Source: Perkinsus olseni (taxonomy: Eukaryota). From it: a stretch of DNA of 33,121 nt. The first letter of the stretch is position 1. The number at the start of each line of letters is the position of its first letter. The stretch is taken from assembly GCA_013115125.1 (NCBI GenBank), contig JABANN010000391.1:1-33121 (forward strand). The letters run 5' to 3'. A program made the translations under genes and the position numbers. Positions 7,528 through 10,213 of this stretch are shown here, one piece after another. Under the pieces are notes generated by a model, which saw only the letters and a list, made by a program, of their open reading frames with translations, was not told the DNA's origin and searched no databases.

Positions 7528-10213
7528 ATGCTCTCAGCAATGATGGCTTCCCTTGCTGAGTATCTTGACTCCCCCTTCGTTATCCAGAACACTGCGCAAG
7601 GGACTACTCTAGTATTCCAGGTAACGACTGGTTATAGTCGTTAAAGTAGCATAAATTTGCACTTGACAGATTTCTAGTGCCGTCACCTGGTTGCTGAGAA
7701 TCCTCATCCCTATCATCGTCACTGCGATCTACCTCAAGGTGGGGTTCATGACCTCTCCGGACTGCTGTCATCTCCGTCCTCAGCTCACTCAAGGCCGACA
7801 GTCGTCGGAGGCCCAGTCAGACGGTGAAGTGCCGCCGTCCACTGCTGATGATGATTTGTTGAATATTACTACGGTCAGTCCAGCCCAACCGAGACCCTTT
7901 GGAAGCCCTACAAGGAAAAGGGTAATGAGGAGGGGGGGATGACTCCTCATGCAGCCTCGCCACAGATAATACCACCCACAGCATCATCGCGATGCAGTTC
8001 TAGAGCCTCTCCAGCGCTCCGGGCTGTGCATCCGTCGGGAAGCAGCAACAGTCGAAGTACCCGGGCAACTTATCTCAAGCAACACCACCGTCCAGCTCAA
8101 GCGGTAGTGTCATCACAGTGGCGTGCAATGGCGATAGTGCTTGGGGTTTCAGGGCGAACAGCTGCGTGGGGAGCAACTAGATAAGGAGGATATACTCAGG
8201 AGCGCTACTGCCGGTAGCATTTGACCCGGGTTCAATCCCATCGGAGCGAATTATTGACTTTCAGCCGCTTCGGACCGCCCCACTGAGTTGGAAGGCCTTG
8301 GAACCTCCCCGCGCGCTACAGTGGTAGCTGCTGCGCGCAGCGTCGGGCAGCAGCAGCATAAGACGGGGGATAAGAAGTCGGCTGAATCACTGAAACGCGG
8401 TGGGTGGAGTTGCGCAGCGTATCTTGTGCGCACAGCGAAGATTCTTGAGCTCATGTTCTGGAAGGTGTTAAAACTGCGCCGCCACTCCCGCCTGGGTTCG
8501 GTTCTGTGAAGGAAGTTGGGAAGGGAGCAGGTGAGATGATATCTCTAAAGGACGCTCATGAGAGCACTGCGCAATGACTTGCCTAATTTTGTGGCGCGTG
8601 ACGATTTCTTTTACAAGGCGGGCAGTTCGTTGACCATCTGTCGGTGTCCCTAGGTATTTCGTTGAAGAACGAAGATGCGCGCAAGGCTCTACAATCAGCC
8701 ATTGACAACTTCCCAAGCGAGGTAGTCGCCCATCTGCGCGCGCCATCGTGATCGATTGCCTTATCGTGGGTAGGCATCCACTGTCTGCCAGGAAGTCTTG
8801 CAGTCCCTCACGTTGGCAGGGGTCATCATCGAGCCACAGACGTAGGCGGAGCGAAGAAATTTTATTCTGTTTCTTAACACTTTTCTTCTGGCAGCTATGA
8901 GGCTATGATCAGAGCAGCGGAAGTTTCCGGTGATACAGAACTGGCTGGCGTCCTCTTCAATGGTGTCAGTAGGACACGCCTCGAAATCTTGCAATCTTGG
9001 CTTTCCTTAACGTATTCTAGGCATCCTGGTCGATGGTGACAAGAAGGACGACCTCGGAGGAAGGAAATCGCCGGTGGAAGATGAAGACTCGTCGCAAAGG
9101 AGCGCGCCGGCTCCAGTGGAGGTGATACATAGAGGTCCCGGGTTCGATCCGAGCGGGGGATGTTTTTGTTCAGCTGCCGCAGACCCAGCCATTGGGTTCG
9201 CAGTCACCCCCTGGACTGTCGACAGCCGCAGCTAGCGCTGCTAACCCAGGGACACCATTGACGATAGTCCCGCAAGAGGAAAGCAAGGATCAGAAGCCTG
9301 AACCCATGAAGCTGAACGCGAAGGCTCCTGAGTTTGTTCCCGCTGGATACGGTACAGCCCCTACGACTAGGTGAGGCGATGGGGACCGGAAAATAGGGTC
9401 GAGGAAGTGCGATGAGTGAACTGAGACAACGCCGGAAGTGGGCTCTGTGGTCGTGTCGAGATTGTTGTTGTGTGAGGTTCTTGGACTCTCTGATGGATCA
9501 CCGACGAGCAGTGGCGGCGGCGAGATATTATCAGAATCAGTTTATGGCAGCAAGATACATGGGCGGGGTAGTATTTTGGTATTGGGGTCTGGAGACCTCG
9601 GGTTCGAATCCTTGTCACGGCATCTTCATATTCAGCTGGCAGCGTTCGCTAAGGCTCAAATGCAAGCCGTGCAACTGGCCCAGGCCCAGGGAACGCATCT
9701 TTCACGCTATCATCCGAATGCTCCAAGTAATAGTATCTGGTCCCATGGGAAGGGAAGAGGTGGTTTAGGCATGCCGGTTATGGACGATGAGCAGCTGATA
9801 GACTGGGGCACTGCTGCTGCTACTAAGGCGGAGGAGGAGGCACAAGTACAGGGGGATGATGGGTTGGTCTGCTGGAGGGAAGGGGACTCCCAGGTACAAA
9901 TGCGGGTTAAGAAGATTATGGATGAGAGACAGAAAGAGTCGACTGAGGATCCTTCTAAGAAGGGTAGGGTCCAGGGATCGAACCTGGGTGGATGGATTAC
10001 CCTTGTTCAGCAGATAGTACATCCCAAGTCGAGGGGAAAGGCCTAAGCAACGACGCCGAATGTAAATGGTGATGGTAGCGCAGAGTATCCTGGCAGTTGA
10101 TTTTATTTCTAGGCAGCAGCAAGCCCGATGGGAGGCCGAATCAGCTCAGGGTAGCTGTGGCCGAGTTGAAGGAAGCGAGTCCTGAGAGGAAAAGGGAATT
10201 GCTCGGCATATAG
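7528..10213 (+). CDS. Multi-exon protein with N-terminal transmembrane segment and PAM2 (PABP-interacting) motif
   Basis: Exons join in phase across GT-AG introns (e.g. 7621-7669, 8214-8264, 8400-9020, 9122-9173, 9568-9635). Hydrophobic WLLRILIPIIVTAIYL segment; PAM2-like KLNAKAPEFVP at ~9310-9342; ends ELKEASPERKRELLGI* (TAG 10211-10213). Confidence 0.75.

Follow-up and report, generated by a model that had tools for sequence, protein, structure and literature searches.

A family of short tRNA-like introns in a Perkinsus olseni contig

Where spliceosomal introns come from is a long-standing question, and the known introners, i.e. intron-making insertions, are transposons with termini of their own. 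A 33,121-nucleotide stretch of DNA from Perkinsus olseni (contig JABANN010000391.1, assembly GCA_013115125.1; hereafter the window) raises this question with a 68-base intron, 9568-9635, that is tRNA-like over its entire length. Is this intron built from a piece of a tRNA gene, and do the similar introns around it go back to one repeat or to several tRNA donors? We favor, with some reserve, the answer that the window holds an introner-like family of short introns whose members derive from the rear portions of several tRNA genes, or of subfamilies of tRNA origin.

The window, which comes from a genus of oyster and clam parasites, is eukaryotic and rich in introns. Its exons are 90-100% identical to annotated P. 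olseni proteins (poly(A) polymerase (PAP) P0001, La-related protein P0068, and P0072) and 75-92% identical to proteins of P. marinus and P. chesapeaki. Introns were defined by RNA contigs and by fetched Perkinsus proteins run against the window with tblastn; the intron totals (about 57 in six genes) were read from tblastn gaps and are approximate. The RNA contigs covered 8800-28799 and gave 77 joints, and the RNA evidence used here is drawn from the 15 of them that were listed. About 20 tRNA-like copies, named here after their anchor positions, were found between 8.2 and 28.5 kb, and 16 of the roughly 57 introns bear one (3 of 6, 1 of 6, 4 of 14, 4 of 12, 3 of 13 and 1 of 6 per gene). The copies at 13190, 14978, 19064, 17960, 20139 and 17663, to which a preliminary description of this DNA had pointed, are all present. 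Short introns as such are common in P. marinus, where most introns are shorter than 100 bp according to the part of Zhang et al. (2011, PMC3101222) available to us.

Could a likeness of this kind arise by chance? The T-arm word GGTTCGAATCC has 28 matches in the window with at most two mismatches, as compared with 9.35 +/- 2.83 in shuffled sequence (largest value 17; none of 100 shuffles reached 28). A profile hidden Markov model (HMM) seeded with 17 copies assigned a clear strand to every copy. It revealed non-seed hits at 8223-8258 (E=0.017), 21713-21747 (E=0.032) and 12369-12388 (E=0.044), plus weaker ones, and over the window it gave no hit with E<1 outside 8.2-28.5 kb. An all-against-all comparison of the 57 introns yielded 65 similar pairs vs 1-5 in shuffles, with 33 introns having a partner; the largest BLAST cluster comprised 15 introns, 14 of them tRNA-like. 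A strict scan for T-arm hairpins gave 8 hits where 1.17 were expected, only 3 of which are family copies; it is too strict for decayed stems. It is true that GGTTCGAACC is nearly palindromic and that several motif matches are the two strands of one site, as an accidental likeness of GC-rich palindromic intron sequence to a T-loop would have it. However, the excess over shuffles, the conserved flanks that set the strand of each copy, the retained C72 and T-run described below, and the identity of GTCACGGCA in the copy at 9601 to tRNA-His genes make such an accident extremely improbable. Outside our list of copies, a 404-base intron (23449-23852) also falls in the tRNA-like BLAST cluster and may hold a further decayed copy.

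The copies are not functional tRNA genes. ARAGORN found no tRNA gene in the window, and Rfam searches of the whole window and of 9540-9640 returned no tRNA match at E<=10. The best Rfam tRNA hit, at 13412-13450, is partial, and its 14.8 bits (E=3.9) fall short of the 29-bit gathering score; no complete cloverleaf was found. The same hit, and no other, had prompted the idea of a mini-tRNA or mascRNA-like minihelix. This was rejected, as the 18 aligned copies show no excess pairing between upstream sequence and tail (permutation p=0.37).

The 68-base intron and its tRNA-His-like portion

The string that had first drawn attention to this locus was located at 9581-9622, inside 9568-9635. The host gene lies on the + strand and encodes a PAM2-like LNAKAPEFVP motif. 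Excising 9568-9635 (GT..AG) fuses open reading frames (ORFs) of 57 and 136 codons, and the homologs P0075 and P0076, both unnamed representatives of their clusters, read gapless over the junction (ARYMGG/LAAMAKAQMQAV; here and below a slash marks the junction). No RNA joint was found at this position among the 15 of 77 joints listed, and contig depth is low in the gene. We conclude that 9568-9635 is a real intron, as had been described. Further downstream, the in-frame segments 9729-9770 (GTAATAG...GTTTAG) and 9846-9893 (GTACAG...CCCAG) are not present in P0075 and P0076. They are probably short introns, too, and are easily overlooked because their length is divisible by three and they contain no stop codons.

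For the isotype of the copy at 9601, public metagenomes were searched with the pattern GGTTCGAATCCNNNTCACGGCA, i.e. its T-loop and tail, three positions of which were unconstrained. At least 122 loci were returned. Among the first 60, ARAGORN called 25 tRNA-His(GTG), 3 tRNAs with an unclear anticodon (two of them with an insert after GTG) and 1 tRNA-Leu; 31 received no call, and by eye the uncalled loci are mostly one other tRNA-derived repeat. A canonical 72-base His gene is present in 49 of the 122 loci listed, with 16 distinct sequences. The profile of these 16 genes has its best match in the window at 9587-9622 (E=4.2e-5, 18.7 bits, model positions 37-72 of 72). The other copies are confined to model positions 18-65 in the seven alignments shown, and among these alignments only the 9601 copy reaches the final position. 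Over positions 46-72 it agrees with the His genes at 23 of 27 bases, including GGTTCGAATCC and GTCACGGCA. The latter are the nine bases that follow its degraded 3' T-stem strand (position 65, acceptor strand and discriminator), and they are identical in the tRNA-His genes. T-arm, 3' acceptor strand and discriminator are of the tRNA-His type in a comparison with loci that had been fetched by a pattern derived from the copy.

The preliminary description had noted that the intron looks like the 3' half of tRNA-His and that TTGGGG resembles a decayed TTGTGG anticodon loop. While the former likeness holds for the T-arm, the acceptor strand and the discriminator, the latter is not significant. TTGGGG lies 18 bases upstream of GGTTCGA, as compared with 19 in the His genes, and thus within 1-2 bases of the expected place; a shuffle test gave p=0.40 for the anticodon arm and p=0.057 for the whole 5' part. 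The independent part of the His evidence is that such 3' ends belong mainly to tRNA-His. By a rough estimate, chance alone might make an 8-letter tail equal to some conserved tRNA tail in about 1% of comparable windows. The piece at 9587-9622 can, judged by its sequence, be assigned to the tRNA-His type, and His is the only isotype assignment that rests on data. Isotype calling by variable loop and T-arm, in contrast, was rejected: of 12 viral loci with CGAAAGGTCCCNGGTTCGA, 7 are Asn, 3 are Ile and 2 received no call. The motif CGAAAGGTCCC.GGTTCGA, which had been labeled Val-like, thus stands in Asn and Ile tRNA genes of viral contigs and names no isotype, so that the label is unsafe.

One metagenome sample series contains dozens of copies of a tRNA-derived repeat with a GGTTCGAATCC...TCACGGCA end followed by TTGCCGGTTTTTTCTGAGGTAGGTG (loci L001, L002, L009, L020 and others). 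This GGTTCGAATCC...TCACGGCA-TTGCCGGTTTTTTCTGAGGTAGGTG repeat received no ARAGORN tRNA call and looks like a family resembling short interspersed elements (SINEs) in some other eukaryote.

Anatomy of the copies

We aligned 18 copies in tRNA numbering, anchored on the T-loop; the copies had been collected via the T-loop motif itself. They have in common AAGGTCCC (A43-C50) and GGTTCGATCCC (G52-C62), corresponding to variable loop and T-arm, and G52, G53, T55 and C56 are intact in all 18, giving a full B-box-like word. At the acceptor-strand positions 66-71 there is no majority base. C72 is found in 14 copies (binomial p=9e-7), a purine at position 73 in 13 (p=0.06) and T at positions 74-78 in 11-14 (p=2e-3 to 6e-6). 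None of the 18 copies carries CCA after position 73, where a T-run stands instead; the templated CCA ends that the preliminary description had proposed to look for were thus absent from the copies in the window. Upstream, an anticodon-loop-like CT-NNN-A word lies 12 bases before position 44 in five copies, the D-arm word TAGCTCAG is kept in one copy (that of intron 13180-13236), and both anticodon-stem strands are kept in one.

Most tRNAs have G1 paired to C72 and a purine discriminator, and in their genes a T-run terminator follows. The 3' ends of the copies are of this gene type, with C72, a purine at 73 and a T-run at fixed distance beside a variable acceptor strand. Such a combination, without CCA, points to a population of different tRNA genes with RNA polymerase III (Pol III) terminators and not to one SINE or to mature tRNAs. 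Likewise, the T-run after the discriminator and the lack of CCA in all 18 copies suggest that the source was tRNA genes or unprocessed transcripts. The earlier suggestion of several tRNA donors instead of a single SINE is consequently supported: the copies do not reduce to one consensus at positions 66-71 while the bases around them are kept, and the 9601 copy alone matches His to its end.

A single tRNA-derived mobile family (SINE, miniature inverted-repeat transposable element or single-ancestor introner) could also have diverged, the tails being decay or target-derived sequence. The core AAGGTCCC.GGTTCGATCCC common to most copies would fit this, as would the tRNA-derived repeat with the same TCACGGCA tail in another organism's DNA. 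The copies 13637 and 24307 agree at 29 of 31 bases (94%), including their 5' end AGGTAATC, and GGTAATCC recurs in the 9984 copy, in both orientations. This likeness fits the spread of a subfamily better than independent donors, and hints that some copies spread from copies. However, uniform decay would not erase positions 66-71 and yet keep C72, the purine at 73 and the T-run at a fixed distance. Furthermore, there are at least five types of variable loop and T-stem (ACCTCGG, CGCAGG, GGCGAAGG, GTCGTGG and GGTCCCNGG), and the copies lack an A box or head, a poly-A or LINE-like (long interspersed element) tail and a target-site duplication. We therefore regard a single diverged family as unlikely. 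A tRNA-derived SINE in the strict sense was rejected, since only the B-box side is present, the upstream part does not pair with the tail (p=0.37) and the end is a T-run, not an A-run.

Splice sites, orientation and age

Fifteen copy-bearing introns were validated by RNA contigs or near-identical Perkinsus proteins. All of these copies lie in + strand genes, seven in sense (9601, 11214, 13429, 13637, 18097, 19077, 23291) and eight in antisense orientation (9984, 13208, 14999, 17684, 17970, 24307, 24466, 28469), and four genes carry both orientations (PAP, La-related, PAM2-motif and the gene at 22.8-26.3 kb). Splicing exactly restores conserved protein text (MGG/LAA, FTFG/SHRLG). In the tRNA numbering one splice site falls at positions 68-91 in 16 of the 18 copies and the other at positions 19-39, also in 16 of 18. 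Both sites are inside the tRNA-like frame in 14 copies, whose introns (43-71 bases) consist of the element only, and at least one is inside in all 18. In the four longer introns (88, 149, 195 and 1073 bases) the copy adjoins an intron end.

The element ends supply the splice sites themselves. Sense copies finish with ...TTTTTAG, and antisense copies begin with GTAAAAA or GTGAAAAG, the complement of the T-run; in 13180-13236, for example, the terminator TTTTTAC yields the donor GTAAAAA when read in reverse complement. The donor GTAGGGT of 9964-10112 is the reverse complement of the acceptor-strand tail, and the acceptor AG of 11042-11236 is the discriminator A73 plus G. Two antisense copies have an acceptor AG that corresponds to C32-T33 in reverse complement, in the anticodon-loop-like CTGACAT of 17941-17990 and in CTAACAA of 24439-24485. 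The 24307 copy (intron 24291-24333) lacks tail and terminator because its donor is at tRNA position 68, beside conserved coding sequence.

These data bear on the proposal, made in the preliminary description, that tRNA 3' fragments were reverse transcribed and captured in introns that already existed. The 5' ends vary (tRNA positions 19-39) as in 5'-truncated retrocopies or tRNA halves, and the 3' side is more fixed. However, a mature tRNA should have left CCA, which is found in 0 of 18 copies, where the discriminator is followed by a T-run. In 14 of 18 cases the intron does not extend beyond the element, so that an older intron would have had no space, and in longer introns the copy always adjoins a splice site. 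Together with the occurrence of both orientations within single genes, this makes the capture of mature-tRNA retrocopies very improbable.

Transposon marks, i.e. terminal inverted repeats and target-site duplications, showed no excess over controls. GAGGGGA (18097) and GTTAG (24466) were considered as duplications and rejected, as neither allows a frame-preserving history.

One copy can be followed into a second species. The P. marinus model P0070 reads through the counterpart of 24291-24333, with RKEVPRIEPGTFGLPALG vs RKEVLGIEPGTFGLPVLG in the window (15 of 18 residues identical), which indicates the same antisense copy at the same site in P. marinus. At least the 24307 copy is thus older than the split of P. 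marinus and P. olseni. The P. marinus protein in question, PMAR029304 (P0070; window 24282-24333), starts inside the tRNA-like intron and runs through it. It is probably a gene-model error that incidentally preserved the element as protein text.

Such persistence, with at most few changes between two species, could also reflect selection on the T-arm-like core, either as a B-box bound by TFIIIC in genes transcribed by RNA polymerase II (Pol II) or as an RNA hairpin that aids splicing or processing of short introns. The intact G52, G53, T55 and C56 in all 18 copies would agree with this. Against it, the copies were ascertained by that same motif, the 3' strand of the T-stem is often unpaired and the strict hairpin scan recovered just 3 family copies. 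A role at the RNA level would not allow both orientations, and the tails, C72 and T-run would be left unexplained. We consider selection on the core improbable as the explanation, although it could coexist with an origin from tRNA genes.

Origin of the introns

Under the favored origin from the rear parts of several tRNA genes, the unit would consist of variable loop, T-arm, 3' acceptor strand, discriminator and Pol III terminator T-run, with a 5' start varying between D-arm and anticodon loop. Pieces of this kind would have been inserted as DNA, in either orientation, into protein-coding genes, and the spliceosome would remove them because their ends supply splice sites. In sense orientation the T-run followed by AG would act as pyrimidine tract and acceptor; in antisense orientation the complement of the T-run would serve as a GTAAAA-type donor and the anticodon-loop side would give the acceptor. 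With ends of this kind the pieces behave like introners. Candidate routes are the copying of unprocessed pre-tRNA ends into breaks, the capture of gene fragments, or the spread of intron copies. What was observed directly is the anatomy of the copies, their two orientations, where the splice sites fall, the diversity of the tails and the occurrence of one copy in P. marinus as well. That insertion created the introns is what we infer from them.

Several points weigh against this origin. The His loci were fetched with a pattern from the 9601 copy, and the match at 19 fixed letters is therefore given by construction. About half of the examined loci do not represent tRNA genes, and many resemble a single tRNA-derived repeat from a different organism. 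With the P. olseni tRNA set outside the search, no tail except that of His was matched to real tRNA genes. CCNGG makes up the T-stem in 13 of the 18 copies, a narrower range than all isoacceptors would lead one to expect, and 13637 and 24307 are nearly alike with different tails. The high conservation of the T-loop is in part ascertainment, because the copies were found through it. Target-site duplications are not apparent either: the longest word shared by the element ends averages 4.56 bases vs 4.26 in mismatched pairs, and in-register junction repeats do not exceed those of 18 other introns in size. Finally, at least one copy predates the species split, so that gain was not directly observed.

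In a wider and more tentative form, which we hold possible but would not yet bet on, Perkinsus would possess an undescribed class of tRNA-gene-derived introners. The rear segments of many tRNA genes would have seeded about a quarter of the short introns since before the species split. Taken with the other repeat families in the introns of the window, debris of small-RNA genes would then be a general raw material for the gain of introns in this lineage. Success in either orientation would follow from the terminator T-run, which doubles as acceptor tract (TTTTTAG) or as reversed donor (GTAAAAA). If this is true, it is a new source of introns in which a Pol III terminator is reused as a Pol II splice signal. 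It would also account for gene-model errors in these parasites, such as the read-through in P. marinus P0070, and tRNA finders and repeat maskers would meet thousands of tRNA-like half sites in Perkinsus. The idea is directly testable, since four Perkinsus genomes are available and a tRNA catalogue has been published.

Comparison with known systems

SINEs have a 5' head, which retains the A box, followed by a body and a tail. The copies resemble tRNA-derived SINEs in being tRNA-related, dispersed in many copies and equipped with an intact B-box-like word, and a SINE-like repeat elsewhere has the same TCACGGCA tail. They differ in that only the 3' part and the terminator are present, the tails vary and end duplications are lacking. 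Mammalian truncated, "tailless" tRNA retropseudogenes are likewise partial tRNA copies with breakpoints in loops, and they carry CCA and flanking duplications. Here, in contrast, there is no CCA and no duplication, and the copies form introns. Compared with the 16 distinct tRNA-His(GTG) genes, which largely agree with it over positions 46-72, the 9601 copy lacks the 5' half and the upstream acceptor partner, has GGG and not GTG at the anticodon place, carries an extra G before the T-loop and a changed 3' T-stem strand (CCTTG), and gets no tRNA call from ARAGORN or Rfam.

Introners and introner-like elements, the nearest known kind, are described from Micromonas, Aureococcus, fungi, Symbiodiniaceae and Polarella, and Amoebophrya in those parts of PMC11282704 and PMC7789003 that were at hand. 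As in these systems, a repeated family fills whole short introns of many unrelated genes and carries or creates splice sites; related sequence occupies 16 of the roughly 57 introns in the six genes, and the element supplies both splice sites in 14 of 18 copies. Perkinsus is, moreover, an alveolate related to dinoflagellates, where introners abound. In contrast to introners, the units show neither terminal inverted repeats nor target-site duplications, measure only about 45-70 bases and represent not one sequence but rear ends of tRNA genes with differing acceptor strands. By their sequence, the intron-forming units look like ordinary tRNA gene fragments from several donors without transposon marks, which would make them a variant of introner. 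We found no literature report linking introners to tRNA-like sequence or describing tRNA-like introns in Perkinsus, and none of introners in Perkinsus, though the tables of large introner surveys may include it.

Potential donors are plentiful in P. marinus. For this species, the portion of Kojima and Jurka (2013, PMC3706591) accessible to us gives unusually high numbers, with 349 Leu-CTT, 116 Gly-GGA, 46 Ile-ATT, 23 Tyr-TAC and 9 Ile-ATA tRNA gene copies. It also describes Dada DNA transposons of 4.7-11 kb that encode a transposase, target tRNA genes and sit inside them. These families belong to the same genus and would offer both abundant donor DNA and breakage at tRNA genes. Nothing of Dada, however, was seen in the window, and that portion of the paper is silent on tRNA pieces within introns.

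Copy-bearing introns and other repeats

The copies and their host introns are collected in Table 1. For 11042-11236, RNA contig record 18 has 149 letters between pieces, equal to exons 10952-11041 plus 11237-11295. The RNA joint 28440->28499 (cut +4; GT..AG) of intron 28445-28502 was found in 4 of 4 runs.

Table 1. tRNA-like copies and copy-bearing introns in the window, with the strand of the copy.
Positions	Strand	Feature	Evidence and remarks
9568-9635	+	68-base spliceosomal intron GTAGTAT...ATTCAG, entirely tRNA-like, sense	Splice sites at tRNA positions 19 and 86
9587-9622	+	tRNA-His-like 3' portion	Variable region, T-arm GGTTCGAATCC, acceptor strand TCACGGC, discriminator A; then TCTTC, no CCA
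9122-9173	+	52-base intron, sense copy (anchor 9141)	HMM seed 9122-9169, E=1.9e-5; intron by ORF continuity only
9964-10112	-	149-base + strand intron, antisense copy 9951-10001 at 5' end	HMM; homologs join ...DPSKKG to S.PD...
11042-11236	+	195-base intron, sense copy 11193-11242 at 3' end	HMM E=8.4e-6; RNA contig
13180-13236	-	57-base PAP intron, antisense copy	HMM E=4.6e-7; RNA exon piece 13236-13414; 19-residue gap vs P. olseni PAP
13415-13502	+	88-base PAP intron, sense copy at 5' end, then second repeat motif ATTTTGAGGCGCGTGACGG	RNA contigs, PAP proteins, HMM
13620-13665	+	46-base PAP intron, wholly sense copy (tRNA positions 35-80)	PAP proteins, HMM E=1.2e-7; acceptor TTTCTAG
13943-15015	-	1073-base PAP intron, antisense copy 14971-15018 at 3' end	tblastn exon ends 13945, 15016; HMM E=1.3e-4
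17652-17697	-	46-base La-related protein gene intron, antisense copy	P. olseni P0068 ...NHPRTG/VNLGYCF...; HMM E=1.2e-5
17941-17990	-	50-base La-related protein gene intron, antisense copy, donor GTGAAAAG	P0068; HMM E=7.4e-6
18081-18125	+	45-base La-related protein gene intron, sense copy (tRNA positions 36-80)	15-residue gap vs P0068, ...EDDEGK/SEGSTS...; HMM E=1.9e-6
19046-19116	+	71-base La-related protein gene intron, sense copy	P0068; HMM E=1.5e-4
23271-23320	+	50-base intron, sense copy	Flanked by P. chesapeaki P0071 residues 104/106; HMM E=1.5e-4
24291-24333	-	43-base intron, antisense copy	P0072, P0071 read ...EGG/LTDLASI...; HMM E=3.1e-6
24439-24485	-	47-base intron, antisense copy, donor GTAAGTG	P0072 ...LADV(N)TILDRIC...; HMM E=1e-3
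28445-28502	-	58-base intron, antisense copy, keeps anticodon-stem-like CCGC/GCGG	RNA joint; HMM E=4.7e-4
8214-8264	+	Candidate 51-base intron, weaker sense copy	HMM 8223-8258, E=0.017, non-seed; ORF continuity only
21702-21759	+	Candidate 58-base intron, sense copy GGAAGGTCGTGGGTTCAATCCCGGC	HMM 21713-21747, E=0.032, non-seed; candidate status
20131-20169	-	Decayed copy, several candidate host introns	HMM E=0.058
19939-19964	-	Possible decayed copy	HMM E=0.68; inverted repeat I18

Other short repeat families occur in the introns of the window. One comprises 16990-17036 and 28168-28243, a second 17519-17576, 24137-24193, 16381, 21271, 27246 and, inverted, 8986-9012, a third 16170-16231, 18904, 7394 and 19636, and a fourth 8586, 13477 and 16074. 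RNA contigs break at 17521/17551, within one such intron repeat. Introns of this genome seem to be widely built from repeats, the tRNA-like family being only the largest. At 8986-9012, ATCTTGCAATCTTGGCTTTCCTTAACG, which includes ATCTTGGCT, represents the GCGTTGAGGAAATGCAAGATTGCAAGAT intron repeat as its inverted partner. A spliced-leader origin of the GCGTTGAGGAAATGCAAG repeat was considered and is not claimed: the P. marinus leader, as given in the part of PMC3101222 available to us, has only the 9-letter word ATCTTGGCT in common with it, which is too short to argue for kinship.

The region 26142-27475 is very highly expressed, with summed contig depths of 54,673 and 140,713 (run X7) vs tens to hundreds elsewhere. 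A CT..AC joint at 26761-26813 points to a - strand gene among + strand neighbors. Long TTG triplet repeats are located at 1-76 and 31759-31906.

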